Shown: positions 11,443 to 56,380 of the stretch, piece after piece | How the letters are laid out: each line of letters begins with the position of its first letter | Position numbering within the stretch: position 1 is the first letter of the stretch | Assembly: GCA_963752195.1 (NCBI GenBank) | Contig: CAVVXI010000004.1 | Coordinates: 2,053,641-2,117,640, forward strand | DNA from: an uncultured Bacteroidales bacterium | GTDB taxonomy: Bacteria; Bacteroidota; Bacteroidia; Bacteroidales; UBA10428 | Length of the DNA: 64,000 nt | Reading direction: 5' to 3' | Made by a program: the position numbers and the translations under genes | Notes under the pieces: model-generated | Told to the model about the DNA's origin: nothing | What the model saw: only the letters and a program-made list of their open reading frames with translations | Database searches by the model: none

Positions 11443-12316
11443 CTATTTCGACGAATTCATTGACAACGCACTGAAAGAAGATATTGGTGACGGGGATCAT
11501 ACCTCCCGCGCCTGTATTCCGCGAAATGCGACAGGCAAAGCCCAGTTGCTTGTAAAAGAAGAAGGTATCCTGGCCGGCGTAAACGTTGCCTTGCGAATAT
11601 TCAATAAGCTTGATCCGACTGTTCAAACCGAAGTATATAAACAGGATGGGGACTGGGTTGCCCCTCCGGATATAGCTTTTGTTGTGGAAGGAAAGATCCT
11701 GGCCTTGCTGAAAGCTGAGAGGCTGGTCCTCAATATTATGCAGCGCATGAGTGGCATAGCCACAACCACACACCGGTATGTGGGTCAATTACAGGGGTTG
11801 AAGACACGAATTCTAGATACCCGGAAAACTACACCCGGTATGCGGCTTCTTGAAAAGGCGGCTGTAAAAACCGGGGGTGGGGAAAATCACCGGTTCGGAT
11901 TGTTTGATATGATCCTGATAAAGGACAATCACATCGATTTTTCCGGTGGCATACCCCATGCGATTTACAGGGTAAAGGAATATATGCAGCAAACAGGAAA
12001 AAACCTGAATATTGAAATAGAAGCCCGGAGCCTGGAGGATGTTCAGACAATAATGGATATAGGTGGTATTCAGCGGATCATGCTTGACAATTTCAATATT
12101 CCGGATACCCGGAAGGCAGTGGAAATGATCAACGGACGTTACGAAACGGAATCATCGGGAGGTATTACATTTGAGAATATCCGCTCGTATGCAGAATGCG
12201 GAGTGGATTTCATTTCCGTTGGAGCATTGACGCACCAGATAAAAAGCCTCGATCTGAGTTTGAAGGCATTAAATTACAAGACAGATGAATTCGGACCGTC
12301 CCGCCAGTATCTATAA
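11432..12316 (+). CDS. nadC: Nicotinate-nucleotide diphosphorylase (carboxylating), also called quinolinate phosphoribosyltransferase
   Basis: Conserved blocks are RKTTPGMRLLEKAAVKTGGGENHRFGLFDMILIKDNHI and MLDNF. The length is 294 aa. Confidence 0.9.
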   Translation: MPNSYFDEFIDNALKEDIGDGDHTSRACIPRNATGKAQLLVKEEGILAGVNVALRIFNKLDPTVQTEVYKQDGDWVAPPDIAFVVEGKILALLKAERLVLNIMQRMSGIATTTHRYVGQLQGLKTRILDTRKTTPGMRLLEKAAVKTGGGENHRFGLFDMILIKDNHIDFSGGIPHAIYRVKEYMQQTGKNLNIEIEARSLEDVQTIMDIGGIQRIMLDNFNIPDTRKAVEMINGRYETESSGGITFENIRSYAECGVDFISVGALTHQIKSLDLSLKALNYKTDEFGPSRQYL

Positions 12317-13217
12317 AGCTTATTTCCACAACAAAAGACTTGTGAGGTGGAGCAAGCAGATTAAATTTCCGGGAACACGCGGACTGTCTGCCTATGAAGT
12401 GATATCCTATTTTATAAGGGGATTGTCGAAAGGATCGCTGAATATAAGGGCAACCTCTATTGCGTTCCATTTTTTGCTGGCCCTCGGTCCGGCCATCGTT
12501 TTTTTGCTTGGCCTTATTCCTTATCTTCCAATCCGTAACTTTCAGCAGGGACTCATGGATATTCTGATGGAAGTAATACCAAAGAATTCATATGCAGCTC
12601 TTGAGGTATTGCTCCAGGTTAAGCATAACGGATTGCAGATATTCGGTTTTGTGGTTACTGTTTTTTTCGTTCAGAAAGGAATCAACGGCATCCTTGAAGC
12701 CTTTAATGCCACCTACCATACAATTGAAACCCGTCAGTGGATTGACCGTCGTTTAATAGCTGTCGGATTGTTCGCGATCCTTTTTGTGCTGGTAACTTTT
12801 GCATCGGTCCTGTTATTTTTTAGCAACCTGGGCATCCGGTATCTTTATATGCATGGTATAATTATGGATTATGGCAATTATCTTCTCCTCCAGCTCGGCA
12901 AATGGATTGTAATTCTTACACTGACCTTTCTCGCCATTTCTTTTCTCTACTTTCTGGCGCCTTCGAGAAAAACAAGATTGAGATTTTTTACTCCCGGATC
13001 CATACTGGCTACCCTGTTGTCAATCCTCACATCCATTGGATTTTCTTATTTTGTTAATCACTTTGCCCCTTTTAACAAATTCTTCGGACCGATTGGCACT
13101 CTTATCGCCGTCATGCTATGGATGAATTTTAATGCTGTGGCTCTGCTGGCAGGCTTTGAACTTAATGCCAGCATAAGGAATGCGAGGGATATAAAATTTG
13201 AACCAATGGCGATCTGA
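12285..13217 (+). CDS. YihY/virulence factor BrkB family membrane protein
   Basis: It has a multi-pass membrane profile. The family-typical N-terminus is present (YFIRGLSKGSLNIRATSIAFHFLLALGPAI) and the C-terminal block reads IAVMLWMNFNAVALLAGFELNA. Confidence 0.8.
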   Translation: MNSDRPASIYKAYFHNKRLVRWSKQIKFPGTRGLSAYEVISYFIRGLSKGSLNIRATSIAFHFLLALGPAIVFLLGLIPYLPIRNFQQGLMDILMEVIPKNSYAALEVLLQVKHNGLQIFGFVVTVFFVQKGINGILEAFNATYHTIETRQWIDRRLIAVGLFAILFVLVTFASVLLFFSNLGIRYLYMHGIIMDYGNYLLLQLGKWIVILTLTFLAISFLYFLAPSRKTRLRFFTPGSILATLLSILTSIGFSYFVNHFAPFNKFFGPIGTLIAVMLWMNFNAVALLAGFELNASIRNARDIKFEPMAI

Positions 13218-13246
13218 GGTGTTGTATACGCACATCCCCGCAGAAC

Positions 13247-13885
13247 ATGTCGGAAATAAACGAAATCAGAAAAGAATATACGTATGCCCAGCTTGAAATT
13301 GACAACCTGGATATTGATCCTATTGTACAATTCCGGTACTGGCTGAATGACGCACTTAAAGCGAATGTGACGGAGCCAACCGGCATGGTATTATCCACAG
13401 CAGGAAGCGACGGAAAACCTTCTTCAAGGGTGGTATTGCTGAAAAACCTGGATCGCGACGGGTTTACCTTTTTCAGCAATTATGAAAGCAGGAAGGGTAT
13501 TCAGATCCAGCAAAACCCTAACGCATCCCTGCTCTTTTTTTGGCCCCTGATTGAACGCCAGGTGAGAATCGAGGGCAGGGTTGCGAAAACCCCGCGTCAT
13601 ATATCAGATGAATATTTTCAGTCACGTCCGGAAGGAAGCAAGATTGGAGCCTGGGCATCTCCACAGAGTACTGTGGTACCCAGCCGGGAGTACCTTGATA
13701 ATCTCCAGAAAGATTATGTTATGCTGTTTAAAAAAAAGGCTCTTGAAAGACCTGAAAACTGGGGAGGTTACAAGCTATTTCCACATACGATCGAATTTTG
13801 GCAGGGAAGAGAAAACCGGCTCCATGACCGGTTCGAATATAAGTTAAATGGCAGTATCTGGGAGATTCACCGGCTTGCGCCTTGA
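13247..13885 (+). CDS. pdxH: Pyridoxamine 5'-phosphate oxidase
   Basis: Motifs are LSTAGSDGKPSSRVVLLK, FFSNYESRKG, RIEG and IEFWQGRENRLHDRFEY. The length is 212 aa. Confidence 0.92.
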   Translation: MSEINEIRKEYTYAQLEIDNLDIDPIVQFRYWLNDALKANVTEPTGMVLSTAGSDGKPSSRVVLLKNLDRDGFTFFSNYESRKGIQIQQNPNASLLFFWPLIERQVRIEGRVAKTPRHISDEYFQSRPEGSKIGAWASPQSTVVPSREYLDNLQKDYVMLFKKKALERPENWGGYKLFPHTIEFWQGRENRLHDRFEYKLNGSIWEIHRLAP

Positions 13886-13954: not shown

Positions 13955-16502
13955 CTATCTGATCACAACCATTCTCCTTTTCCCTGAAACAGAATTGCCA
14001 TCTATCAGCATGGTGTAAAAATACACACCCGCCGGAAGATTCTGCAGATCAAAGGTCACACTCGAATTTCCCTTGCCGGCTATTGGATACTGACCAACCA
14101 CAAAACCCGACATGTTATAAACCAATATTTTGGCGTTCCCTGCGTTTTCTGACACATAGCAATCAATGGTGGTGGTGGTGGTGGCAGGATTCGGATAATT
14201 TTGTTCCATACCCGATAATTGTAAATCTTCTTCCATTGGCAGGGCAGACTCGTCTGCAGCAATGTGAAATCCCGATTTCATCTCCGATGCGGGGGCGTTT
14301 ACGCAGGCATAGAAAGATCTGCCTTCGTGTGTTCCATCCCCAAGCTGGCCCTCATTGTTGACTCCGGTGCCACAATAACTGCCGTCCGGGTTCATTATTA
14401 TTGAATAAAAAAAGCCTGCCGCAATCATGGAGCAGTTGTTCATGCCTTCCACCGGATCAATTGTAAACATGGCGTCCCCGTTAAAACCATTTCCAAGTTG
14501 TCCATAATAATTGTATCCCCATGACCATACGGATCCGTCAGCCTTCATTGCCAATGAATGCTGATAGCCGGTGGAAATATCTTTCCAGTCCGTGGCATTA
14601 TCTATCATGAAAGGCTTAAGATGGGTTGCTTTGGAAGTATCAGCCAATTGACCATAATTATTACGTCCCCATCCCCATAGTGTTCCGTCCGATTTGAGGG
14701 CCAAAGCATGATCCCATCCGGCAGATATAGTTTTCCAGTCTTTGTCAGATCCTACTTGAACAGGTGAATGTTTATCAATGGTTGTGCCATCGCCCAGCTG
14801 GCCGCGGTCGTTACTGCCCCAGGCCCATAAAGTACTATCCTTTTTCAGCGCCAGCGTGAAATTATTGCGGGTAACCACCATCTTCCAGTCTGTTGAAGCT
14901 CCGATTCTTACAGGGTTTTTTGAGCTCGATGTCAGAACCATTTCCCAGCTGTCCTTTGTCATTGTAGCCCCATGCCCAGAGTGTTCCGTCCGTCTTTATC
15001 GCAAGGGAATAATAATATCCGCCGGTTACCTGTCTCCAGTTATTGGCTGTTCCTATCCTGAAAGGTGTGATTTTTTCTGTTGTTGTTCCGTCGCCCAATT
15101 GTCCTACTATATTAGCTCCCCACACCCATAACGATCCATCCATTTTGATGGCCAGGGTATGATTATAGCCAGGAGAAGCCTGTTTCCAATCGTTGGCGCC
15201 AATCTTCACCTGGGAATATCGGTCAGTTTTGGTTCCGTCACCGATTTCTCCATTTATGTTGCCGCCCCATGCCCACAGGCTTCCGTCCGTTTTCAGGACT
15301 AAACTATGATGGTAAAAAGCGGTCATCTTATCCGCAATTATATATTTAACAATTAACCTGGGCCACCTGGCTGAATCGGGAAATTCCCGCGAACAGAAAG
15401 CCATCCTGCTGTATTTTAGCTCACTTTGTAAGCGAAGCATAAAGCCAAAGCTTTCACCCGGGTTAATCACCATATCCTGAACCATACCGGTGACATCATA
15501 GTTCACATAGTCCTCATCACTGGTTCGAGATTCCGGTAATGCCAGCCTGTGGCTTGTGGATGTGGCCGGCTGTGAATTATAAGTTACTGTTGATTCAGTC
15601 CAGGTTGATGTAATCCTTTCAATATAGCTTGCATTTGACCTGTAAACTGAACCCGGTTTTACCAGGCTGCTTGAATGCTTTGACTCATCATTGATCTGCG
15701 GAGCAAAAGAATAAAGTGTGAGCTGCGCTTCCACAATGACAGCATCAGCAGGAATTGAAGCCACATCAAAATCCATTACACTTCGTTGATTCACCCGGTA
15801 ATTACTTGCAGTCCATTCACCCGAGTAGATTTTAGTGCTTGTCCCGTAATTTGTATTTGCATAGTAATCATAACCGGGTTTTGCAGTCATATACAGGTAA
15901 GCATCCTTGCTGGATGTGAGCGTTACCGTTTTTGTTGCTGATAACGATTGATTGACAAGGGAAGCGTCTGCAGCCATCATCTTATTCTTATACTTTGTTT
16001 TACCGCTTTTTCCGTTATCGTCAGGGTCATGTTTTCTTACAAAATCCATGGAATCAATTCTGGCCATTGCCCTTTTCCATTTTTCTCTTTCGTGTTTTGA
16101 ATTAACTGCTTTTCCGTCAGCGCTTTTTTCATTAATGACAATATTCCTTCCTGCCCTGTCTTCCCCTTCTATCAGCACAAACGGATCTTCAAGCTGTCCT
16201 ATGATCTTGATATAAACCCTATTATCGAGAAGGAAAAAGTCAGTTGCCTTATTGGTCGAAATATTGCGCGTAAAATAGGGCCGGGTTTTGTCATTATAGG
16301 TTACATATAATTTAACAAACCGCGATATATCTTCGGCCTTTAATACGCAATACAACGTAGTCATTGTATCGCTTTTGGATGTCAGCCTGTACTCAAATTC
16401 ATATGTTGGAGTTATCTGGTATGATCGTTCCTGCGCATATGCGTGGGAGAATAGTACCGTCCCACATGCTGCCAAAACAATAAAGCGGATTATTCTTTTC
16501 AT
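13955..16502 (-). pseudogene. Frameshifted gene for a DNRLRE-domain, RCC1-repeat protein with a T9SS type A sorting domain
   Basis: Two overlapping ORFs (14862..16571 and 13955..14962) both carry RCC1 repeats (GQLGDG/GEIGDG ... LWAWG). Removing one A from the coding-strand A6 run (plus-strand T6 at 14916..14921) joins them as GQLGNGSDIELKNPVRIGASTDWK, which fits the repeat pattern. The start ATG at 16502 gives the signal peptide MKRIIRFIVLAACGTVLFSHAYAQ. The C-terminus reads NYPNPATTTTTI ... LPAGVYFY. Confidence 0.65.
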
Positions 16503-16583
16503 GATGAATTGGGATTTAATATTTCTCTTATTACGACATTTCACTGCCTGACGTAATATAAAATTGACCAATCCACCTATTCA

Positions 16584-30248: not shown

Positions 30249-30253
30249 TGAAG

Positions 30254-30362
<109 letters not shown>

Positions 30363-30431
30363 ATTTTGCCCCGCCATCGGCGGGGGTTATATTTTAACAC
30401 GCCGGAAACATTGTATATTAAGCTGTCAACA

Positions 30432-33328
<2,897 letters not shown>

Positions 33329-33382
33329 TTGTACTTACAACTTAATATACAAATTATTCCAGCATGTCAAAGAACTTAATTT

Positions 33383-33417
33383 AATTATGAATTATGAATT
33401 ATAAATGATGAATTTAA
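33383..33417. repeat. Heptamer array AATTATG AATTATG AATTATA AATGATG AATTTAA in the 23S/tRNA-Ala spacer
   Basis: Read directly from the sequence. It is the same motif family and plus-strand orientation as the left arm at 26463. Confidence 0.85.
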
Positions 33418-33539
33418 AATCCACACCCATAAAAAAACAAGCAGTAATGAAACAACCGAATGTTTCCGTTTCCTAAACTACATTACTTATTTAAAAGAAC
33501 TGAAATTTCGAATTTTAATAGACCACAAACTAAAATTTG

Positions 33540-33613
33540 TGGAGAATAAGGGATTCGAACCCTTGACCCCCTGCGTGCAAGGCAGGTGCTCTAGCCAGCT
33601 GAGCTAATTCCCC
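33540..33613 (-). tRNA. tRNA-Ala (anticodon TGC)
   Basis: The minus strand reads GGGGAATTAGCTCAGCTGGCTAGAGCACCTGCCTTGCACGCAGGGGGTCAAGGGTTCGAATCCCTTATTCTCCA. The cloverleaf has a 7-bp acceptor stem and CCA is not encoded. Confidence 0.95.
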
Positions 33614-33634
33614 GAGGAATTATCTGTTTATTTT

Positions 33635-33692
33635 TTGATTCGTTGATTTGTTGATTTTAAATCATCAAATCAATAGATCATCAAATCGACAA
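33635..33692. repeat. Octamer inverted repeat filling the tRNA-Ala/tRNA-Ile spacer
   Basis: The left arm is TTGATTC GTTGATTT GTTGATTTT. The right arm is AAATCATC AAATCAAT AGATCATC AAATCGAC. The arms are imperfectly complementary. Confidence 0.8.
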
Positions 33693-33698
33693 ATTAAG

Positions 33699-33772
33699 TA
33701 GTCCCGCGCAGATTTGAACTGCGGACCCCTACATTATCAGTGTAGTGCTCTAACCAACTGAGCTACGGGACT
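33699..33772 (-). tRNA. tRNA-Ile (anticodon GAT)
   Basis: The minus strand reads AGTCCCGTAGCTCAGTTGGTTAGAGCACTACACTGATAATGTAGGGGTCCGCAGTTCAAATCTGCGCGGGACTA. The acceptor stem is AGTCCCG/CGGGACT. Confidence 0.95.
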
Positions 33773-33946
33773 GTGTTAATCCGGTATACTCAGCTCAGCC
33801 TGTCCCGGCCTCTTCAGCAAACAGGCTACTGAGCTTAAATTCATCTGCAATTCAAAGTGCCGGGAACACTTTTCAGGGAATTAATATTTTATAAAAAAAA
33901 GAAGAGACTCGAAGGAAAGGAGAGGATTAAGAGTAAATCTCTCTCT

Positions 33947-35468
<1,522 letters not shown>

Positions 35469-35724
35469 GTAATTAAAAATTTAAATATTGCTCAAGATTC
35501 ACTCAAAATTCCCTGCATTGCTGCAAGGACCTTATATTACTATAAGGGTTTTCCTTTTCCTTACCTTCTTTGTCTCTTCAATCTTTTCAAAGAACTTATC
35601 TATAAAATGGGACGACAAAATTAATAAACTTTCTTAATCGCGTCACCTTTTTAACAAAATCTTTTTAGAACGTTTTTTTGGATTCTTCATTCGAAATTTG
35701 ACTTCCGAATTTTGAAGCGGAGTG

Positions 35725-46137: not shown

Positions 46138-46848
46138 ATGCTGAAAAAGCTCCTGTTGGCATTTCTACCCTTGTTATGTGTCCTGAATCTTGCGGCCCAA
46201 AAAGAATTTACACCTTCTACTTATCTGGGGATTGCTGCAGGCGGTGCTTTTAGCCATGCTGGTTTTACTCCTTCCGTTAAACAGAAAATGGTTGCCGCCA
46301 ATTCCTATGGTCTGATTTTCAGGCATGTTTCCGAACCCCATATCGGTATTCAGCTCGAACTCAATTATGCAGGACGGGGATGGACTGAAAACAGGGATTC
46401 TTTGGGCGATTACACGCGAAAACTCAGTGTCATTGATATACCCGTTACTGCCGTATTTATTATCGGAAGCAAAAACCTGAGATTTGCTTTTAACCTGGGC
46501 CCGGATGTGACGTACCTGGCAGATGACAAGGAGGAGATTTCGATTATAGATGCCGAGTATGTTCCCGATTATTACCGGTTTGTACACGACGGTAAATTAT
46601 ATCCCGAATATGGCAATCCCCTGTATTATGGCTATTACGGCAAACCTCTTACACAGGCCTGGTCGTTCGGATTTATTGGCGGAGCCTCGGTAGAATGGTA
46701 TACAAAATTTGGTGCCTTTGGTATCCGCGCCTCATATAGCTATATGCTTACAAATTATTTCCCGCTTGATGAGGATGTTTTTTATTACGAGGCCTCCAAA
46801 TCACAAACGCTCAACCTGGGTGTAAGTTATTTTATAACGCTGCACTAA
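46138..46848 (+). CDS. Outer-membrane beta-barrel protein (PorT/OmpA-like small porin family)
   Basis: It has a signal peptide (LNLAAQ) and alternating hydrophobic/aromatic beta-strand patterning. The terminal strand is aromatic-rich (LNLGVSYFITLH). Confidence 0.65.
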   Translation: MLKKLLLAFLPLLCVLNLAAQKEFTPSTYLGIAAGGAFSHAGFTPSVKQKMVAANSYGLIFRHVSEPHIGIQLELNYAGRGWTENRDSLGDYTRKLSVIDIPVTAVFIIGSKNLRFAFNLGPDVTYLADDKEEISIIDAEYVPDYYRFVHDGKLYPEYGNPLYYGYYGKPLTQAWSFGFIGGASVEWYTKFGAFGIRASYSYMLTNYFPLDEDVFYYEASKSQTLNLGVSYFITLH

Positions 46849-47896
46849 TAAGATTCAAGAAAGTACAAGTCCGGATTATCCAGAAATCGTTCATCCCTCA
46901 TGCCTGTATGGTTAAACATGATCACACTTCCTACCCCAGCTTCCGGGTAAATCCGGATTTCGCAATAATATCCGCCCCCTCCGCCCGCATGTGTATAAAA
47001 TTGTTTGCCCTTTAATCTTCCTGTGAACCAGGATAAACACATCCCTGTTGGCGTGTTACCGTTGGTTATGTTTTCAGTGAACATCTTTTTTTGATACTTG
47101 ACATAATAATCCTTAAACGGCTTCCATTGATGCTCGGGTGCATCCATGAATTTTGATTTATCGATAAGCAAACCCAATACAGCATTTGAAAGGCTGAAAT
47201 TTTTGTGGTATCCTTTTGCGTGTTGATTTGTCCCTATTTCAAAGCCAAGTTCATTTTCAGGAATATTTAAAGGCTTGATTATTGTAGAATGAATGTGGTT
47301 CTCATAACTCATTCCGCTTACTCTTTCAATCACTTGCCCCAGTAAAACATAGCCCAGGTTCGAATAGGCGAATTTTTCATTTGGCTTGAATTTTACCTTA
47401 AATTCTCCGCTTTTTTGCCTTGTCCAAGCAGGATTTGACCAAGTCCGATCGGGCTTACTGTGTTTGGATCATCGATATAGCCCTGATTCTGTACTATAGA
47501 TTGCTGGAAATAAAATTGCGCCCTTGTCTTTTCTCCGGCAAAATGAGCCAACAGTCCTGCAATCTCATAAGCCCTTTGAGTCGGGATGTATCTTCTCCAT
47601 CAGGGTATTCACCAGTTCCAGGGCTTCTTTTTCCTTCCCCTGGCTGACATAGCAATAGCCCAGCAGCTTGTATGTATCCCAGTAGGAGGTACTGTTGAGT
47701 TCAAGGAATTTTTTAAGCCCGCTTTCTGACCGTTCCGGTTTGTTTCCATTATTTTGCTGTTCCCGGTCCGCATTCTTCACCCGGTTGCGAATAACCGGAG
47801 CTTCAAAACCTTCTTTCATAATAACTACATAATGCTTCTGTGCGGATATTCCGAGGGAAAATGCCAGCATCAAAATAAGAATAAATGATTCTTCAT
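46845..47896 (-). pseudogene. Decayed gene: signal peptide, TPR-like segment and the C-terminal two-thirds of a beta-lactamase-family serine hydrolase, split over four reading-frame segments
   Basis: The hydrolase part keeps the YxN motif (FAYSNLGYVLLGQVIERVSGMSY) and a late HAGGGGGY block, but I found no SxxK nucleophile motif. Three frame changes coincide with homopolymers: plus-strand A4 at 47872-47875, G3 at 47583-47585 and T6 at 47411-47416. Single-base length changes at these runs restore one continuous frame starting MKNHLFLFLMLAFSLGISAQ (ATG at 47896). Confidence 0.55.
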
Positions 47897-48161: not shown

Positions 48162-50135
48162 ATGGTTTACTTAAAAACAGTATGGAAGCTTGGAATAATT
48201 TTAATTATCGTTCTAATCCCTTCTTCACTTTTCGCCCAGCCTGAAGTAATGGCGTGGGGCAATATCACAGGCATCCGCGTGGAGGGTCAGTTAATGGAAT
48301 TTGAATCCAGCGTGAGGATTGTGGAAGAAGGCTGGGCGAATTATTCTTCTACCGGGAAGGAAAAACAACAGCCGAAATATGACCGCGACGGGTTGAAGCA
48401 AACGATAACTACCGGTATGAAAGGATTCCGGATTTCAGAAGTTGTGGAGGAATCCGGCAAGGGGATGGCATCGGTAAGCCTGAAAACTACCGCACTGGTT
48501 GATACACTCATCGAAGGGGTTTTTTTCTGTATTGAATTACCGGAAAATTACTATTCTGATTCAAAAATAAAATTTGTCAAGGGATCCCCGGCCACACGGT
48601 CAGGGATAAATCTTTCCGGCATTTCTGCAAAGAATGCCCTGAAGCCTTTCAGGGTGAATGCGGACGGTTTGATCATTACTTCCGCGGAAAGACAACTTGA
48701 ATTGAATTTTGAGGGGAACATGACGGTTTTTGTAAGAAAAGAAGAGGATAAACCGGGTGTGCATATATATATAGGTATAATGGGGCCCGGGATTAAAAAA
48801 GGACAAGAGGTGCAAAAATCGATTACAATAAAAGCCTCCGGCAATATTGACAGGGCACCTGCAGAGATTGTCCTGGATGCTGGTCAGCCCGGAAGGAAAT
48901 TCGACGGACTGGGTGGCAATTTCCGTCTTCAGAATCCGAAAACCGATCCCCCGGTAATCGACTATTGTATAGATAACCTGCGTGTTGCCTGGGGCAGGGT
49001 TGAAATGCCATGGAGCTTATGGCATCCCGAAGAAAATAAAAGTCCGATCGAAACTGCCCTGTCAGGACACCTCGATCCGCGTGTTCGTTCCGCGATGGAA
49101 ATGGCCAGAAGGTTGGACAGCATTGGAATGCCTATTATAATAAGTGATTGGTCCGCCCCAGCCTGGGCAATTATCGGAGATCCACGGGATGCCTATCGTT
49201 ACCGGTCCGAAGGAATTTATGGCTATCCGTTGAATTCAGCCAAAATGGATAAGATATATCAATCGATTGGAGATTATCTTGTTTATCTGAAACAACATTA
49301 TGGTGTTGAGCCAAAAGCCTTTTCATTCAATGAATCCGACCTGGGAATCAATATCCGGCATACCGGAAGGGAACACGCTGATTTTATAAAAGGACTGGGC
49401 GCCCATCTTGCAGTGAGGGGACTTTCAACCAAATTGCTTTTGGGGGATAATTCAGATGCCACCACTTTTGACTTTATTGTACCGGCCATGGATGATGAGG
49501 AAACACATAAGTACATAGCTGCCATTTCGTTTCATTCCTGGCGTGGTTGTACGGATGATATCCTCCGGAAATGGGCCGGAGCAGCAAAACGGATGAATCT
49601 GCCATTGATTGTGGGTGAGGGCAGCACGGATGCTGCCGCATGGAATTATCCCGAGATTTTTTCCGAATCTTCCTTCGCTTTGTATGAGATTAACCTGTAT
49701 ATGAAACTGTGTGCAATTTGCCAGCCAGTTTCTATTTTGCAATGGCAACTGACAGCTGACTATTCGCTTTTGACGGGAGACGGAGTGTTTGGCACTTCGG
49801 GTCCTTTGAAACCGACGCAACGGTTCTGGAACCTTAAACAGCTTTCCTTCACTCCGGAGGGCTCATTCGCCATACCGGCCGCCGTCAGTAAGGAAGGAAT
49901 AAATTGTGCGGCATTCGGGAATATATCCCGGGGAAAATATGCTGTGCATGTTGTAAATAACGGCGCAGAAAGAGATGTTGTTGTAAAAGGCATTCCCCCG
50001 GAAATAAAATACTTTTCAATTTACATTACGGATTCAGTCAGAGGTATGGAAAAGGCCGGGGAAGTGCAGGTCATTAATGGAAATGCCGGATTCAAACTTT
50101 CCGCCGCTGCATTTACATCACTTATAAGTTTATAA
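48162..50135 (+). CDS. Exported clan GH-A-like (GH30/GH5-like TIM barrel) glycoside hydrolase candidate with an unassigned N-terminal domain of about 230 aa
   Basis: A signal peptide is present. The candidate acid/base strand is FSFNESDLG and the candidate nucleophile strand is LIVGEGS, in the order expected for clan GH-A. The family was not verified. Confidence 0.5.
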   Translation: MVYLKTVWKLGIILIIVLIPSSLFAQPEVMAWGNITGIRVEGQLMEFESSVRIVEEGWANYSSTGKEKQQPKYDRDGLKQTITTGMKGFRISEVVEESGKGMASVSLKTTALVDTLIEGVFFCIELPENYYSDSKIKFVKGSPATRSGINLSGISAKNALKPFRVNADGLIITSAERQLELNFEGNMTVFVRKEEDKPGVHIYIGIMGPGIKKGQEVQKSITIKASGNIDRAPAEIVLDAGQPGRKFDGLGGNFRLQNPKTDPPVIDYCIDNLRVAWGRVEMPWSLWHPEENKSPIETALSGHLDPRVRSAMEMARRLDSIGMPIIISDWSAPAWAIIGDPRDAYRYRSEGIYGYPLNSAKMDKIYQSIGDYLVYLKQHYGVEPKAFSFNESDLGINIRHTGREHADFIKGLGAHLAVRGLSTKLLLGDNSDATTFDFIVPAMDDEETHKYIAAISFHSWRGCTDDILRKWAGAAKRMNLPLIVGEGSTDAAAWNYPEIFSESSFALYEINLYMKLCAICQPVSILQWQLTADYSLLTGDGVFGTSGPLKPTQRFWNLKQLSFTPEGSFAIPAAVSKEGINCAAFGNISRGKYAVHVVNNGAERDVVVKGIPPEIKYFSIYITDSVRGMEKAGEVQVINGNAGFKLSAAAFTSLISL

Positions 50136-50138
50136 CAT

Positions 50139-51293
50139 ATGGGATATTTTGCCAGAAATATAAATGATGTTGCCCGGCATATTCTGTCCTTATGGATCCT
50201 CCTGCTTTTACCGCTTATTTGCAGCGGACAGCCTTTCCAAACCGACACATTATGGATAAAAGAAGCAGCGTTTGCGCCGGTTATCGATGGAAATCCGTCT
50301 GATGATTGCTGGGAATCCATTGCCTGGGAATCCATCAGCCAGGTTTGGATACCCTGGGGAAGTTCCGTCGATTCCGCTGATTTTAGCGGCCGATACAAGG
50401 TGTTATGGTCGTCTGCGCAAAATCTGCTGTATGTTCTGGCTGAAATCACGGATGATATTTATGTTGACGGGTATGTATACAAGAGCAGTCCTGAAAATAA
50501 CAACTATCCCGACTACGATCTCCTGGAAGTTTTTCTCGATGAAAATGCCTCAAAAGGGAAGCATGTGTTCGATGGAACAGGCCAAACAGGAATCGACTGG
50601 GGATATAATGCCGAAAATGCCTGGTCTTATCATATTATGGTCAATAGTCCGCCAGATGGAGATACTACGCAGAAAAAGAACGTGTGTGATATTGCAGGTA
50701 CAAACTGGTCAGATGAATGGATTGTAAATTATAGGGACCACATGCCCGAATTTGCCCTTTCCAGGCAGGGAAACCATTATTGCTGGGAATTTTCGCTTAA
50801 GGTTTTTGATGAGAATTACAATCCGGCTGATCCTTCCGACGAAAACAGGATAATGCTTCAACCGGGTAAAATCATGGGTTTGTCGTTTGCTTATTGCGAC
50901 AATGATGAAGCGGGGACAACGCGTGATAATTTCATTGGTTCGGTTTGGGTACCTGAGGAAAATTTTAATGATCATTGGATTAATGCCGATTACTTCAGGG
51001 CTGCAAGGCTCACAGGCAATTCCATTCCGACAGGGGGTGAAGATAATCCCGAAAACACTGCGCAGTTGCTTTATGATCCTTTGCTGCGCGAACTTACAGT
51101 TATTCCGAATCCCGTTTTCACACAGGTAACCCTGTACAATATGCAGGGTATGCCAGTTCAAAAACAGGATCCTAAACGGAATTGCCAGAACTGTACAAAG
51201 AATTTTTCGTTTATAAATTTGCCTGATGGCATTTATCTTGTAGCATCCGAATCAAAGGGCCACAGAGATGTTATCAAACTAATAGTTTATTGA
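50139..51293 (+). CDS. CBM9-like (DOMON-like) sugar-binding protein with a T9SS type A sorting domain
   Basis: A signal peptide is present. The CBM9-like opening is IDGNPSDDCWESIAW ... LLYVLAEITDD. The C-terminus reads VIPNPVFTQVTLYN ... LPDGIYLV ... IKLIVY. Confidence 0.6.
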   Translation: MGYFARNINDVARHILSLWILLLLPLICSGQPFQTDTLWIKEAAFAPVIDGNPSDDCWESIAWESISQVWIPWGSSVDSADFSGRYKVLWSSAQNLLYVLAEITDDIYVDGYVYKSSPENNNYPDYDLLEVFLDENASKGKHVFDGTGQTGIDWGYNAENAWSYHIMVNSPPDGDTTQKKNVCDIAGTNWSDEWIVNYRDHMPEFALSRQGNHYCWEFSLKVFDENYNPADPSDENRIMLQPGKIMGLSFAYCDNDEAGTTRDNFIGSVWVPEENFNDHWINADYFRAARLTGNSIPTGGEDNPENTAQLLYDPLLRELTVIPNPVFTQVTLYNMQGMPVQKQDPKRNCQNCTKNFSFINLPDGIYLVASESKGHRDVIKLIVY

Positions 51294-53317
51294 TCATCGC
51301 AAAATATTTGACTTTTGAAATTATCGGGAATGATAAGCCTATGAAAAAAATGGTACAATTCCTCCGAAATTTGTTCGGCAAACCGCGTACCGCATTTTAT
51401 GCGGCCGGAATAACCTCAACCATATGGTTCCTGATTCGCGTAATTCCCAAGCCGACCCGTGCATCGTATCCGTGTATGCGAGCTGCAGCGCCCATTATGT
51501 CGGGATTTGTAATCTACATGGCTGGTCTCTGGGCTTCTGCATTTGCCTTTAAACAGGCACGGATAAGTTTTTCGCGGAACAGGTATACCCATGGATTCAT
51601 GTTCCTTCTTGTGCTCCCTGTGTTCCTGGTCATTGCCGCCTCGGGGGATGTAAAACCATCCTGGGCGGTACAGGCAATGGTCCAGGATCCGCCCGACGGC
51701 GCGAACCAGCCTGTAGGTATTGCGCAAGGCATTATTCCGGGCAGGGTTGCCTGGGCCTATGACAGGGCTTCTACCGATTCCCTGTGCACAAACAATGCCG
51801 GCGATCGCTATTACCGGGCGGAGAATTATGACCAGTCAATCATCGACAGTATGATGAGGAAATCGGTGCTGGGCATTACCGGTGCCCTGAACATTAAAGA
51901 TGCATGGGATAGTATTTTCACCTATCATAATATCCGGAAAACAAACCAGAGAAAAAGCTACCTGCCGGGTGAAACAATCTTCATAAAAATTAACCAGGGA
52001 ACGGCAAGCTGGCTGTATATGAACGGAACTGCTTACGAGGCACCCGATGTGATTCCGCCAAGCGACGAATGGAAAACTGCCTATGCAGGCGCCTGTGAGG
52101 CATCACCCCCGGTTGCACTGGCCCTTCTCCGGCAACTTGTCAATGTCTATGGAATTGAACAGCAGAATATTCTGATTGGTGATCCGATTTCCCATATATA
52201 CAAGCACAATTATGATGCCTGGCATGGTGAATTTCCGGATATTAAGTTTATTGACAGGTCCGGTGATTTCGGAAGAACGATTATCCATCCGGGCGATATG
52301 GCTGCCATGCATTATTCCGACCTGGGGACAACTATGCCGGATGCTGTTTCGGACAAACTCTACAAAGAGATGACCGATGCAGCCTATATGATCAATATTG
52401 CTAACCTGAAGCCGCATATTCGCGCAGGGATTACCCTTTGCGCAAAAAACCATTTTGGTTCCCATACCCGGAACGGCGCAGATCACCTGCATCCATCCCT
52501 GATATGCCCGGCAGCCGATGGAAGTCCCACCAATGCAGGATACCAGAAATACAGGGTGCAGGTTGATATAATGGGAAACCGGTTCCTTGGCAGGAATACA
52601 ATGCTGTTTATCGTTGACGGTTTGTGGGGTGGCGGTCCGGAAGAGACAAAGGCCCCCAAAAAATGGAAAATGCCCCCTTTCAACAACGACTGGACTTCCT
52701 CGATATTTATGTCTCTTGACCAGGTTGCGCTGGAGTCAGTATGCTTCGATTTTATCCGTACAGAATTCAATGGCGTGAACCAGCCGGAAACAACTCCAAA
52801 CTGGAGCGGAGTGGATGATTATCTTCACCAGGCCGCCGACAGGCAGAACTGGCCCGATGCAATTACCTATGATCCCAATGAAGAAGGTATTGAATTACCG
52901 AGCCTGGGAACCCATGAACACTGGCAGAATTCCACCACCATGGCCTACAGCAGGAACCTGCAGATTGGCAACGGTATTGAATTATACAGGGTTCCGGCTG
53001 TCAGAACCTATATACCCACCGGTATATCCGCCAGGGAAGAGAATGCCCGCTTTGAAGTTATTTGTTATCCCAACCCTTTTACAGGCTCCACCGCATTCTC
53101 ATATACACTTCTGCAACCTTCACAGGTTAAGATTTCTGTATATGATATGAATGGCAGGTTAATCAAATGCCTCATCAATGACTCCGAACCTGCAGGCGAC
53201 AAACATCTTATCTGGCAGGCTGGCAACGTTGCACCCGGATATTATATGGGATATATTGAAATTGCCTGTCAACAGGAACATTTCCGAAAAACAATCAAAA
53301 TTCAAATAAATAACTAA
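51290..53317 (+). CDS. DUF362-like protein with an N-terminal hydrophobic/YPCM region and a T9SS type A sorting domain (paralog 1)
   Basis: DUF362-like blocks are ETIFIKIN and NLKPHIRAGITLCAKNHFGS. The C-terminus reads CYPNPFTGSTAFSY ... YDMNGRLI ... APGYYMGYI. The start is uncertain: TTG at 51290 overlaps the upstream stop, and ATG at 51341 (MKKMVQF) is the alternative. Confidence 0.7.
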   Translation: MIIAKYLTFEIIGNDKPMKKMVQFLRNLFGKPRTAFYAAGITSTIWFLIRVIPKPTRASYPCMRAAAPIMSGFVIYMAGLWASAFAFKQARISFSRNRYTHGFMFLLVLPVFLVIAASGDVKPSWAVQAMVQDPPDGANQPVGIAQGIIPGRVAWAYDRASTDSLCTNNAGDRYYRAENYDQSIIDSMMRKSVLGITGALNIKDAWDSIFTYHNIRKTNQRKSYLPGETIFIKINQGTASWLYMNGTAYEAPDVIPPSDEWKTAYAGACEASPPVALALLRQLVNVYGIEQQNILIGDPISHIYKHNYDAWHGEFPDIKFIDRSGDFGRTIIHPGDMAAMHYSDLGTTMPDAVSDKLYKEMTDAAYMINIANLKPHIRAGITLCAKNHFGSHTRNGADHLHPSLICPAADGSPTNAGYQKYRVQVDIMGNRFLGRNTMLFIVDGLWGGGPEETKAPKKWKMPPFNNDWTSSIFMSLDQVALESVCFDFIRTEFNGVNQPETTPNWSGVDDYLHQAADRQNWPDAITYDPNEEGIELPSLGTHEHWQNSTTMAYSRNLQIGNGIELYRVPAVRTYIPTGISAREENARFEVICYPNPFTGSTAFSYTLLQPSQVKISVYDMNGRLIKCLINDSEPAGDKHLIWQAGNVAPGYYMGYIEIACQQEHFRKTIKIQINN

Positions 53318-53327
53318 TTAAGAATTT

Positions 53328-54329
53328 ATGTTACAGAAACTGAAATTTCCACTACTGGCCTTAGGTATAACGGCATTTTTGCTGCCTTGCTGCAAACCCG
53401 ATGAAGGCTCCAAAAATTCAATTGCCGGAAGCATAGTCAAATCGATCTATATAGAACCCGATGGCACTAAATGGTTTGCAACCGACAAGGGTATATCCTC
53501 ATTTGATGGAACAACGTGGATCAATTTTGATGAAAGTGACGGTTTGCCTGTTGCCGGGTTTAATGGCATAACACAGTCGTCATCAGATCAAGGCACTAAT
53601 CTCTGGCTTGCAACTACCAGGGGAGCTATTGCAACCCATTGCGAAACAAATATTATGTCAATTGAAAACAGTTTCACCAAAGAAAACTCTGAACTTCTTA
53701 ATGATACAGTGCTGGCCATAGCCCTTGACAAGGCAGGATACCTGTGGATGGGTACCAGCATGGGACTGAATGGGTTAAAAAATAATACCGAATGGATTTT
53801 ACCTACAAAACAAATATTTACAAAACCCATAAGCTCAATCGGATCCTCCCAAGACGGATGGAATTATTTTGCAACTCTGGGCGCAGGCGTTGGAAGAAAC
53901 CAGACTTCCGTGGACGGCATTTCGGCAGCCTCTAACTATGAAATGCCCTGGGCAGGATTACCCTCCGACATTGTAAATACGGTTTATGTAGATCCGGGTA
54001 CCGGCAACCAATGGTTTGGCACGCCATCCGGAGCGGCCTACCATGTGGGAACTGAAACCAAGAGAAACTGGACAGTTTTCACTACAGCGGATGGACTTAT
54101 CAACGATGAAATACTTTCCATAGCCGGTGATTCCGATGGCAACATCTGGTTTGGAACAAAAGGCGGCGTGTCAAAATTAAGCAATTCAGTCTGGACATCT
54201 TATTCGACAACAGATGGTCTTGCCGGCAGTACGGTTTACGCAATTGCCCTTGATACCGACGGTTCCCTGTGGTTTGGAACCGATAAGGGCGTATCGCATT
54301 TTACCTCGGAACAATGGCTTAACTACTGA
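53328..54329 (+). CDS. Stand-alone two-component-regulator-propeller (Reg_prop) repeat lipoprotein
   Basis: A lipoprotein-like signal is present (AFLLPCC). Repeated W[FLM][GA]T..G blocks are KWFATDKGIS, LWLATTRGAI, LWMGTSMGLN, QWFGTPSGAA, IWFGTKGGVS and LWFGTDKGVS. Confidence 0.7.
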   Translation: MLQKLKFPLLALGITAFLLPCCKPDEGSKNSIAGSIVKSIYIEPDGTKWFATDKGISSFDGTTWINFDESDGLPVAGFNGITQSSSDQGTNLWLATTRGAIATHCETNIMSIENSFTKENSELLNDTVLAIALDKAGYLWMGTSMGLNGLKNNTEWILPTKQIFTKPISSIGSSQDGWNYFATLGAGVGRNQTSVDGISAASNYEMPWAGLPSDIVNTVYVDPGTGNQWFGTPSGAAYHVGTETKRNWTVFTTADGLINDEILSIAGDSDGNIWFGTKGGVSKLSNSVWTSYSTTDGLAGSTVYAIALDTDGSLWFGTDKGVSHFTSEQWLNY

Positions 54330-54367
54330 TAAATATTCAATGAAGTTACCTGACTAAAAAAATAACT

Positions 54368-56380
54368 ATGAAAAACATGTGGAGAAAAATCATGGATTGG
54401 ATGTTTATCTGCCATCCCGAGACAGGAAAAATCAGCGGATTCCGGAAACCAAAACTTTTTACCGTCATCCCTTTTATTATAATTGGCCTGGGTTCATTCA
54501 TCTGGTTATTGATCCGCGTGCTTCCCAAGCCAAGCCGGATAACATATCCCTGTATGAAGGTTGCGATGCCTCTGGCATTTTCATTCCTGGCCTACCTGGC
54601 TTCCATGAGTGCGACGGTTGTGCTTTTCCGGAAATCAATTACAAACTTCAAGGCACTCCGGTATAAATATGCCCTGCTTTTCCTGGTTTTTGCCCTCGTT
54701 GCGGGGACAGGGACACTGATATACGAGTCATTGCCATCCAATGCCGCCGGTGTGCATAGTCATGCTACTCTTTTTGAAGATCCCCTCGGCCCGAATACAC
54801 CCATAGGGACACCAAAGGGACTTTTCCCGGGCAGGGTGGTATGGGCTTTCAATCCGGATGCAACCAATGCGGCCTGCACGAACAGCAATCACAGCAATGC
54901 CTACTGGCTTGAAAAAAACTGCGATCAGGCAGTGGTGGATAAAATGTTTTCTGACGGCATTAAAGCATTAACCGGGAAAGAAACTCATGCCGAGGCCTGG
55001 GATGCTATTTTTCATTATTTCAATACGAACCATGCAAAGGGAGATATAGGCTATGCACCTGACGAGACCATCTTTATTAAAATAAACGCGGTTACTGCCT
55101 GGAGCGGCGCTGAACCGGATGGCGTTATGCCTGATTACCTGGGCATTGAAGACGATACATCACCACAGGCTATCCTTGCTTTGTTGAGACAACTTGTGAA
55201 TGAAGCCGGTGTTCCCCAGGAGAATATATTCATTGGTGACCCCATGGCCGATATTTGGAATACGTTATATGATAAATTTTATGCCGAATTCCCCGATATT
55301 AACTATACATCAAAAAGAACAATTACCGGAAGATATAAGTTAACGCCTGACACAAAGCCCGGTATCTATTATTCTGACAAAGGAACGGTGATGGATGATG
55401 ATCCTTCAAATTTCCATGCCAGCCATTGTTTCTTTAAAGAAATGGAAGATGCCGATTACATCCTGAATGTACCTGCAATGAAAGGTCACCGCTGGGGTGG
55501 TGTCACGATGTTCGCAAAAAATTATTTCGGGGCGAATACCACGGATGGGTCATGGCAGCTTCACAAAGGCCTGATGAAACCCGACAGCGATCCTTTACGG
55601 ACAGGCTACAATCACTACCGTGTTTTTGTGGATCTGATGTCGAGCAAATACCTGGGGGGTAAAACTTTGCTGTATTTTATGGACGCACTGTGGTCAACCA
55701 GCTTTGAACATCAGAAACCACAGAAATTCAGGACCGCTCCGTTTAACAATGACTGGTGTTCTTCCCTTTTGTTTTCGCTGGATCCGGTAGCCATTGAATC
55801 CGTTGGGCTCGATATTCTGCAGAAAGAATTTACAGTGGAAGAAATCGACAATAACAACAGTACACCAGATCGTTATACCTACGTTCAGTGGAATGGCGTC
55901 GATGATTATTTACACCAGGCTGCAAGCAGCGACTGGTGGCCTGAAGGCATAACCTATGATCCCGACAGTTCCGGCACACCGATTGGTAGCCTGGGTGTTC
56001 ATGAACACTGGAACAATACGACCGATATGGAATATTCAAGGAACCTGGGAACCGGTGAAGGAATTGAACTTGTAAAATTGTTTGAAATCCCTACCGCCAC
56101 CAGGGAAAACTTATCTGATTTTACGCTGGAAGCATTCCCCAACCCGACGACAACAACTGCAACGATTCGCTTTCATCTTGACCAAGGCAGCCGGACCAGG
56201 ATCGACATCTATTCCATTGATGGGAAATTTATCCTGACTTTAGTAAATGGTCAGCTTCAGGCCGGTGATCAACATATCGAATGGAATCCGGGAAATCTGA
56301 AAGGCACCTATTTTGTGAAACTGATCCTTTTTGACGGATCGGCACAAAAGGTATATAAGACGAGATTGCAGGTTATTTAA
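54368..56380 (+). CDS. DUF362-like protein with an N-terminal hydrophobic/YPCM region and a T9SS type A sorting domain (paralog 2)
   Basis: It aligns over its full length with 51290..53317. Shared blocks are ETIFIKIN, LALLRQLVN, PFNNDW, GVDDYLHQAA, ITYDP and HEHW. The C-terminus reads FPNPTTTTATIRF ... YSIDGKFI ... LKGTYFVKL. Confidence 0.7.
   Translation: MKNMWRKIMDWMFICHPETGKISGFRKPKLFTVIPFIIIGLGSFIWLLIRVLPKPSRITYPCMKVAMPLAFSFLAYLASMSATVVLFRKSITNFKALRYKYALLFLVFALVAGTGTLIYESLPSNAAGVHSHATLFEDPLGPNTPIGTPKGLFPGRVVWAFNPDATNAACTNSNHSNAYWLEKNCDQAVVDKMFSDGIKALTGKETHAEAWDAIFHYFNTNHAKGDIGYAPDETIFIKINAVTAWSGAEPDGVMPDYLGIEDDTSPQAILALLRQLVNEAGVPQENIFIGDPMADIWNTLYDKFYAEFPDINYTSKRTITGRYKLTPDTKPGIYYSDKGTVMDDDPSNFHASHCFFKEMEDADYILNVPAMKGHRWGGVTMFAKNYFGANTTDGSWQLHKGLMKPDSDPLRTGYNHYRVFVDLMSSKYLGGKTLLYFMDALWSTSFEHQKPQKFRTAPFNNDWCSSLLFSLDPVAIESVGLDILQKEFTVEEIDNNNSTPDRYTYVQWNGVDDYLHQAASSDWWPEGITYDPDSSGTPIGSLGVHEHWNNTTDMEYSRNLGTGEGIELVKLFEIPTATRENLSDFTLEAFPNPTTTTATIRFHLDQGSRTRIDIYSIDGKFILTLVNGQLQAGDQHIEWNPGNLKGTYFVKLILFDGSAQKVYKTRLQVI

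Follow-up and report, generated by a model that had tools for sequence, protein, structure and literature searches.

The stretch of DNA analysed here, referred to as the window, comprises 64,000 nucleotides of contig CAVVXI010000004.1 (assembly GCA_963752195.1) from an uncultured Bacteroidales bacterium. At positions 48162-56380 it carries five co-directional genes for exported proteins, g1 to g5, two of which (g3 and g5) encode paralogs of DUF362 that are combined with type IX secretion system (T9SS) sorting signals. A first-pass annotation, made from the sequence alone, had proposed these genes as one cluster, and all five open reading frames (ORFs) are present on the + strand with the spacers it gave: 3 nt, a 4-nt overlap (47 nt when g3 is started at ATG 51341), 10 nt and 38 nt. 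The 47-nt spacer between g2 and g3 is the likelier of the two, because close homologs of g3 all have their N-termini at the equivalent of ATG 51341. Scans with Pfam and NCBIfam models confirm the labels of four of the five genes (g2 to g5), and neither a SusC/SusD pair nor a regulator nor a transporter is found within the cluster or flanking it (46-57 kb of the window), as had been stated; the flanking genes are housekeeping genes. The genes and their parts are as follows, with lengths in amino acids (aa).

48162-50135, + strand: g1, an exported GH30-like glycosidase of clan GH-A, 657 aa.
50139-51293, + strand: g2, a CBM9-like carbohydrate-binding protein, 384 aa, which has a signal peptide and ends in a short T9SS tail that scores below threshold.
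51341-53317 (alternative TTG start at 51290), + strand: g3, a secreted DUF362 paralog, 658 aa, with a T9SS tail.
51341-51667, + strand: the leader of g3, a two-helix hairpin whose invariant loop has its YPC at residues 43-45, then a signal peptide with PSWA (Ala109) at its end.
53328-54329, + strand: g4, a stand-alone Reg_prop beta-propeller, 333 aa, probably a surface lipoprotein.
54368-56380, + strand: g5, the second secreted DUF362 paralog, 670 aa, with a T9SS tail.
54368-54745, + strand: the leader of g5 (residues 1-126), delimited by AlphaFold helices and invariant residues.
54770-56101, + strand: the core of g5 (residues 135-578), a DUF362 domain with a LarA-like two-lobed fold in the model.
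56129-56380, + strand: the T9SS C-terminal domain of g5, type A, an Ig-like beta-sandwich with strands at residues 588-669 of the AlphaFold model.

The central domains of g3 and g5 belong to DUF362, as the annotation had it, with scores of 38.6 and 43.7 bits respectively against a gathering threshold of 24 bits for the Pfam model (PF04015). Both proteins align to the C-terminal half of that model only (positions ~89-200); other members align over positions 1-200. They are diverged paralogs, 38-39% identical, and the type-A sorting domains ascribed to them are recognized by TIGR04183 in each case: g3 scores 26.6 bits with this model (cut-off 23) and 24.5 bits with PF18962 (cut-off 27), thus passing the first cut-off only, and g5 passes both with 33.3 and 27.4 bits. 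The parts of g3 are a leader (residues 1-109), a core (~118-560) and the tail (~575-658), and a profile of the DUF362 family matches the solved T9SS tails 8glk and 8glj in the PDB. The host has a T9SS, since the window encodes a PorP/SprF protein (1610-2518) with an adjoining CHU_C cargo and, at 13955-14962, a protein with a Por_Secre_tail domain; none of the core genes porK, porL, porM, porN and sov is visible in the 64-kb window. The PorP/SprF gene and its neighbour (1610-6592, - strand) form the usual pairing of a PorP-like protein with a type-B cargo, here a protein of 1,357 aa with a type-B (CHU_C) T9SS signal. At 13955-16571 (- strand), a protein with RCC1 repeats, CBM96 and Por_Secre_tail is split into two ORFs, 13955-14962 and 14862-16571, that overlap by ~100 nt; the split may be due to a sequencing error or a frameshift, or may mark a pseudogene.

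The first-pass annotation had overlooked the N-terminus of the DUF362 proteins: in place of a simple signal peptide, both begin with a three-helix leader, which takes up 109 residues of g3 and 126 of g5. In the AlphaFold model of g5 the helices span residues 30-51, 61-95 and, after a basic loop, a hydrophobic stretch at 99-120, followed by an A/S-x-A126 cleavage motif and a disordered linker of low pLDDT (124-134). The loop between the first two helices, R50-V-L-P-K-P-S-R-I-T-Y-P-C62, holds the family motif PKPSRAxYPC, and W46, R50, P53-K-P55, R57, Y60-P61-C62, P68 and F73 are invariant across phyla. The third helix and its basic loop resemble a classical signal peptide. Within an otherwise variable stretch, position -1 is Ala in all 87 sequences of the alignment and position -3 is A, S, V, L, I or T in 86 of them; this -3/-1 motif is the signature of signal peptidase I, and cleavage at this point is predicted. 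The leader is of the Sec type, with no twin-arginine motif, and is covered by no Pfam or NCBIfam model.

A profile restricted to the leader found 1,049 representative clusters (50% identity). Among the matches listed, each of the 62 that reach at least 350 aa has the DUF362 core as well, recognized by the core profile in 61 cases and by Pfam in P0361; the idea that the leader is a portable module used by other protein families was accordingly rejected. Because every such match has the core, the leader appears welded to the secreted DUF362 family and not to be a general export signal, and it is present even in a Planctomycete member despite the lack of a T9SS tail there.

The two partners of g3 are both related to proteins that bind carbohydrates. 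The label of CBM9-like T9SS cargo given to g2 stands in its first half, with 68 bits (E 1.3e-18) against CBM9_1 (PF06452; cut-off 23.4), and is weaker in its second, as the tail scores 20.8 bits with TIGR04183 and 22 bits with PF18962 (E 2e-4), below the cut-offs of 23 and 27. Residues 46-153 align to the CBM9-2 module of Thermotoga Xyn10A (1i82, E 0.0018) over the first half of the domain, in which the first Trp of the ligand-clamping aromatic pair falls on a Pro, with Tyr residues nearby. CBM9 modules bind reducing ends, and the fold of CBM9-like domains is also that of DOMON and cytochrome domains.

The description of g4 as a Reg_prop propeller lipoprotein is likewise upheld: it scores 68 bits (E 1.5e-19) against Reg_prop (cut-off 20.4) and begins with a lipoprotein-type signal (…LLPCCKPDEG). 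Its best relatives in the PDB are periplasmic propellers of Bacteroides hybrid two-component sensors (3v9f, E 2e-29; 4a2l, E 8e-28), with PorZ (5m11) matching weakly; an identity as PorZ was rejected, the PorZ model scoring 57 bits against a cut-off of 260. The Reg_prop propellers of the Bacteroides sensors bind oligosaccharide signals. Although homologous to the propellers of these sensors and of PorZ, g4 differs from them in being a single stand-alone propeller with a lipoprotein signal, far under the PorZ cut-off, and Pfam finds in it Reg_prop repeats only, with no Y_Y_Y, kinase, receiver or HTH domain. The Reg_prop partner of other loci comes in two forms: a protein of ~433-459 aa with a T9SS tail (loci L012, L013, L034, L037, L043 and L066) versus a short lipoprotein of ~340-360 aa in which the Cys is followed by D, E, K or N (L057, L076 and L077). 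As judged from their sequences, the tail and the lipoprotein signal are two routes to the same outer surface.

Homologs of the DUF362 proteins are numerous and cross phyla. Searches with g3 and g5 returned 3,696 and more than 1,799 clusters respectively, and in a scan of one genome per species at least 584 genomes encode the protein, among the Bacteroidota, Ignavibacteriota, Calditrichota, KSB1, Marinimicrobia and one Planctomycete. The Bacteroidota (Bacteroidales included), Ignavibacteriota, Calditrichota and KSB1 are taken as largely anaerobic. In 79 loci from other genomes, where ORFs were called and labelled by similarity to the proteins of the window, DUF362 is fused in a single chain to a C-terminal CBM9 eight times and to Reg_prop three times, and in others a CBM9 protein resembling g2 lies next to it. 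Reg_prop directly follows DUF362 in many of these loci, and does so for 10 of the 15 DUF362 genes of the g3 type. The claim that DUF362 is tied to carbohydrate-binding partners is thus borne out for the g3 type: 13 of its 15 genes have CBM9 or Reg_prop as a neighbour or fusion partner, versus 8 of 55 for the g5 type; among the top 120 homologs of g3, at least 19 are single chains of DUF362 and Reg_prop (~900-950 aa). Genes of the g5 type usually stand alone or in tandem arrays, as in locus L081, where one lies alone among housekeeping genes. The linkage of g2, g3 and g4 goes beyond chance, since these three modules are found again in other phyla, both side by side and fused. On this comparison of sequences, the conserved module consists of g2, g3 and g4, with g5 as an extra paralog. 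The neighbourhood conservation that the annotation had proposed to test is found for part of the cluster: g2, g3 and g4 recur together across phyla, and g1 is not co-conserved.

The surroundings of these genes point to carbohydrates as well. In 60 loci, the genes at most two positions away from DUF362 include 14 for other T9SS cargo, seven for Reg_prop proteins, four for GH51 and three each for GH43 and for esterases, together with three to four hybrid two-component sensors and two each of GH94, GH97, GH26 and GH2. The statement that the cluster is not a classical polysaccharide utilization locus is correct for the window and does not extend to the family: the trio of DUF362, Reg_prop and CBM9 lies inside SusC/SusD loci elsewhere (L090; also L005, L006 and L010), in L090 (1-18028) together with an ECF sigma/anti-sigma pair. 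The same locus also encodes a T9SS cargo of 1,158 aa with fn3 domains and a faint match to RGI_lyase. In L091 (510-10841), a DUF362-Reg_prop fusion is encoded directly downstream of genes for UxuA, an SBF transporter, two MR_MLE dehydratases and two RraA-like proteins, and SusD is encoded in the vicinity; the case is a single one, and hints at acidic sugars as substrates.

The remaining gene of the cluster, g1, has a different history. The protein has a signal peptide and an additional domain of ~230 aa on its N-terminal side, lacks a T9SS tail and has no match in Pfam or NCBIfam, Pfam's GH30 model included. Its label of GH-A-like hydrolase is nonetheless supported, as probably GH30-like: the single sequence matches the GH30 xylanase 6iuj in the PDB (E 5e-5), a profile of the family matches GH30 enzymes only (E 9.4e-10, mainly over the C-terminal beta-sandwich), and the catalytic-type positions N390-E391 and E486, which are invariant in 37 homologs, align with the corresponding NE and E positions of 6iuj in the single-sequence alignment. 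The family to which g1 belongs comprises at least 2,439 clusters that share its GH30-like character, its lack of a Pfam model and the extra N-terminal domain of ~230 aa, with homologs in L086, L088 and L089, and is possibly an unclassified subfamily related to GH30. Homologs at 60-67% identity are found alone or with GH26, GH5, GH2, CE2/SASA and SusC/D genes, that is, in mannan-type loci, with no DUF362 nearby; these neighbourhoods suggest a role for the g1 family in the breakdown of beta-mannan or glucomannan.

The annotation had treated all five genes as a unit. If they formed one dedicated operon or system, g1 and the DUF362 proteins would process a single substrate step by step, and several features would suit this: the short spacers (3-47 nt), the common strand, the lack of any terminator-like site on the + strand inside the cluster, and the recurrence of the same five-gene order, g1 included, in a close relative (L080), with the adjacency suggested also in a few other close relatives whose g1, g3 and g5 homologs are 74-86% identical. 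The five-gene unit is not borne out, however, at greater distance: not one of the 79 loci of other genomes has a g1 homolog beside DUF362, and g1 homologs at 60-67% identity keep the other company described above. We therefore regard a five-gene system as unlikely. By its distribution g1 appears to be a lineage-specific neighbour outside the conserved module, whose adjacency is recent and confined to one lineage. Scans for sigma-70 promoters and terminators were uninformative for this Bacteroidota-like sequence, and a reading of the upstream region revealed no clear promoter motif.

Some further observations concern these loci. In L080, the g5 ortholog is separated from an aspartate-kinase gene by a gene of the GH35/GH42 type (12112-13623) that the window lacks, and several genes of the contig are split, suggestive of frameshifts in an assembly of long reads. 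In the window, an ORF of 162 aa just upstream of the cluster (46845-47333, - strand) matches only the C-terminal half of a beta-lactamase/transpeptidase model (positions 156-319 of 329) and is probably the remnant of a truncated gene. The window also holds a complete rRNA operon (16S, two tRNAs, 23S and 5S) at 30253-35470 (- strand).

Conservation within the DUF362 core is strong and enzyme-like, so far as an alignment can indicate. The invariant positions, numbered as in g5, are K238-x-N240, D291, K372-G-H374, K384-N385, H399, E447, D472, D512-D513 and H545-E-H547-W; in an alignment of 87 sequences that are 49-86% identical to g5 (39% for g3), about 35 polar residues are invariant, and K238, N240, H374, K384, N385 and D472 remain so among members that are only 20-46% identical. 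Generic DUF362 proteins (PF04015, COG2006) are cytoplasmic and often fused to 4Fe-4S domains. The family of g3 and g5 has in common with them a score above the threshold and, by direct reading, the motifs K-x-N, K-G-H and K-N-x-F-G. It differs in its obligatory three-helix leader, in extensions of ~100 residues at the N-terminal and ~85 residues at the C-terminal side of the domain (with DDYLHQAA and HEHW), in its T9SS tail or carbohydrate-binding modules (CBMs), in the lack of an Fe-S motif and in a predicted extracytoplasmic location.

The modelled fold of the core has only distant relatives among enzymes of known structure. An AlphaFold model of g5, built with 87 homologs, reached a pLDDT of 85 over the full length, and Foldseek searches with it were swamped by matches to the Ig-like tail; the core (residues 135-578) was therefore trimmed and modelled again, with a pLDDT of 92.6 and a pTM of 0.93. 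The top 18 matches of this core in the PDB are all racemases of the LarA family, the best being malate racemase 7s91 (E 1.3e-3, probability 0.99, TM 0.37/0.40), and TM values to the family are ~0.35-0.40. On the model, then, the DUF362 core is of the LarA-like fold class, as a distant relative only.

Other members of the family show which part of these proteins is likely to be the active one. Among 33 long members, DUF362 is present in all, Por_Secre_tail in 21 and CBM9 in 10; CBM6/35, CBM96, CBM4_9, malectin, F5/8-type C, fn3, PKD, Big and beta-helix domains occur in fewer. Two of the architectures are DUF362 with malectin, PKD, two CBM6/35, Calx-beta and CBM4_9, and DUF362 with three Big_7, three CBM6, CBM96 and a T9SS tail. 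In these multimodular proteins DUF362 is the sole globular module that is neither a binding nor a spacer domain; because every other module binds or spaces, it holds the position of the catalytic module.

A non-enzymatic role is conceivable: the secreted DUF362 domain might be a surface-binding, adhesin or scaffold module to which the CBMs add avidity. Some T9SS cargo are adhesins, no catalytic activity is on record for DUF362, and the fold match to enzymes is weak. The many polar residues that are invariant across phyla, with K-x-N, K-G-H and K-N-x-F-G of generic DUF362 among them, and the place of DUF362 as the only domain that is not CBM- or Ig-like make this improbable.

The likeness to LarA raises another alternative, that the secreted proteins are true nickel-pincer enzymes of the LarA type, racemising or epimerising a 2-hydroxy acid (for example, a sugar acid from acidic glycans) in the periplasm or outside the cell. 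The LarA superfamily (DUF2088; 5huq, 7s91 and 9q3j) shares its two-lobed alpha/beta fold class with the core, of which it is the sole structural relative in the PDB by Foldseek, and DUF362 and DUF2088 share Pfam clan CL0471 (PMC11770544). In LarA, the cofactor is tethered by K184 and bound by the nickel ligand H200 and by R75, and H108 and H174 are catalytic (PMC11770544). A weak local alignment places H374 of the core on the catalytic H174, and its ungapped extension places K384 on K184 and H399 one residue off H200, so that the His-x9-Lys spacing and the following His may be retained; the sugar-acid genes (UxuA, MR_MLE and RraA-like) beside the DUF362-Reg_prop fusion of L091 would also fit. 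The alignment is far from secure, however: hhalign of the core with LarA is not significant, with a probability below 0.2 and two alternative registers, identity is ~12%, and the positions of R75 and H108 have no Arg or His counterpart in the core in this weak alignment. By sequence, the core (single sequence and 87-sequence profile) matched T9SS tails only in the PDB, with no LarA chain up to E 10 in the profile search and no DUF2088 match up to E 0.1. We treat the active-site equivalences of H374, K384 and H399 as leads and make no claim that the cofactor site is conserved.

The cell biology also argues against a LarA-type enzyme. LarA is cytoplasmic and served by lar cofactor genes, whereas the secreted DUF362 family is predicted to be exported by Sec and T9SS and is tied to CBMs; a leader of the Sec type implies crossing of the membrane in an unfolded state, yet LarB, LarE and LarC make the cofactor in the cytoplasm, and no lar genes are present in the 64-kb window. 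Use of the nickel-pincer cofactor by secreted DUF362 proteins is unlikely, because their leader is Sec-type without a twin-arginine motif and the cofactor is built in the cytoplasm, and we give little credence to the LarA-type enzyme as a whole. The weakest alternative, an extracellular redox module in which the CBM9-like and DUF362 pair shuttles electrons to or from a substrate, might draw on the link of generic DUF362 to Fe-S proteins (Pfam; PMC5742341) and on a family found mostly in metagenome-assembled genomes of Bacteroidales, Ignavibacteriota, Calditrichota and KSB1, lineages of largely anaerobic character to which oxygen-dependent auxiliary enzymes would be unavailable, and is highly implausible, as mature g5 has four scattered Cys (170, 185, 354 and 464) and no Fe-S motif, Fer4 is matched neither in g3 and g5 nor in the 33 long members, none of the latter has a ferredoxin, cytochrome or flavin domain, and g2 aligns to a true carbohydrate-binding CBM9.

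We favour, with moderate confidence, a reading in which g2, g3 and g4 form a surface or extracellular module acting on glycans, g5 is an extra enzyme paralog and g1 an unrelated glycosidase. The analysis shows the domains, the class of fold, the anatomy of the leader, the fusions and the neighbourhoods; from these, the reading predicts leader cleavage, surface location, the formation of a complex in trans, catalysis and a class of substrate. Each DUF362 protein would insert in the inner membrane by its three-helix leader, signal peptidase I would cut after the invariant Ala (Ala126 in g5, Ala109 in g3), and the mature protein would fold in the periplasm, to be routed by its type-A C-terminal domain through the T9SS to the cell surface or the medium. 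There, the CBM9 protein (as T9SS cargo) and the Reg_prop propeller (as surface lipoprotein) would serve in trans as arms by which the g3-type enzyme binds glycans, a role proposed for them on the grounds that their counterparts are fused C-terminal modules in other genomes.

The DUF362 core itself would be the catalytic module, acting on a polysaccharide of the plant-cell-wall type, most likely a hemicellulose or a pectic side chain, by way of the constellation of His, Lys, Asp and Glu residues common to DUF362 and the LarA fold, and without the cytoplasmic nickel-pincer cofactor. As to the reaction, we can offer a weak guess by analogy: a non-hydrolytic step of the isomerase, epimerase or lyase type at chain ends, suggested by the binding of CBM9 to reducing ends and by a fold that comes from isomerising enzymes. 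A broader and more tentative proposal, which we rate as possible and somewhat doubtful, is that the core represents a carbohydrate-active enzyme class that is new and derives from the fold of LarA racemases, that it performs a non-hydrolytic step in the breakdown of plant polysaccharides in Bacteroidota, Ignavibacteriota, Calditrichota, KSB1 and related phyla, and that it is exported by an undescribed bipartite leader, in which the hairpin with its invariant Cys precedes a cleavable signal peptide and has a role of its own in maturation or in hand-over to the T9SS.

Several points weigh against the glycan-acting module. The similarity of the core to LarA is weak in structure (TM 0.35-0.40) and not significant in profile-profile comparison. 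About a quarter of the DUF362 family members in the loci are without a recognisable T9SS tail, so that some may act in the periplasm, and the tail of g2 falls short of both curated cut-offs. Neighbourhoods are heterogeneous, and the g5 type is often found by itself between housekeeping genes, so that a role on glycans is tentative for g5. Co-transcription of g1 to g5 is suggested by spacing and strand, and leader cleavage, surface exposure and complex formation are predictions. Finally, the searched literature yielded no activity, substrate or ligand for any DUF362 protein.

That DUF362 is uncharacterised, as the annotation remarked, agrees with this literature: searches on DUF362, PF04015 and COG2006, on LarA with CBM9 and on CBM9 with T9SS found no functional study, and databases annotate the family only as 'DUF362 domain-containing protein'. 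A paper on an acyltransferase was rejected as a source for DUF362, the domain in it being DUF3623 (a prefix match). The claim of an undescribed system needs qualification: no function has been published, and the pairing of DUF362 with CBM9 has already been remarked upon, as DUF362-CBM9-dockerin proteins were noted in passing in enrichment metagenomes from beaver and moose (Wong et al. 2017, PMC5742341), as a matter of co-occurrence only. Those proteins have the same pairing, are predicted to be extracellular and come from lignocellulose-degrading anaerobes; they differ in being single chains that are predicted to sit on cellulosomes via dockerins, whereas the pair described here is split over adjacent genes, routed through the T9SS and joined by Reg_prop as a third partner.

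The closest parallel in layout is found in the modular T9SS-secreted carbohydrate-active enzymes of Bacteroidota, which likewise consist of one globular module with variable CBMs (CBM6/35, CBM9, CBM96, CBM4_9, malectin and F5/8-C), Ig-like spacers and Por_Secre_tail; the neighbourhoods of DUF362 are similarly rich in GH43, GH51, esterases and SusC/D. Unlike the catalytic modules of those enzymes, the DUF362 module belongs to no glycoside hydrolase, lyase or esterase family of Pfam, its model resembles none of them in the PDB, and its leader is not a plain signal peptide. We know of no LarA-like fold among the established families of carbohydrate-active enzymes.

DUF362 is a large family without known function, and the present analysis defines an extracytoplasmic branch of it. 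The hairpin-plus-signal-peptide leader of this branch is a separate puzzle in protein export and in the handling of T9SS cargo. The fusions point to polysaccharides and thereby provide the first testable class of substrates for DUF362, making the secreted proteins candidates for a large, cross-phylum family of enzymes that act on polysaccharides. Should the core be catalytic, it would constitute a new enzyme class in the anaerobic degradation of plant biomass, with relevance to the cycling of carbon in sediments and digesters and to the discovery of enzymes.

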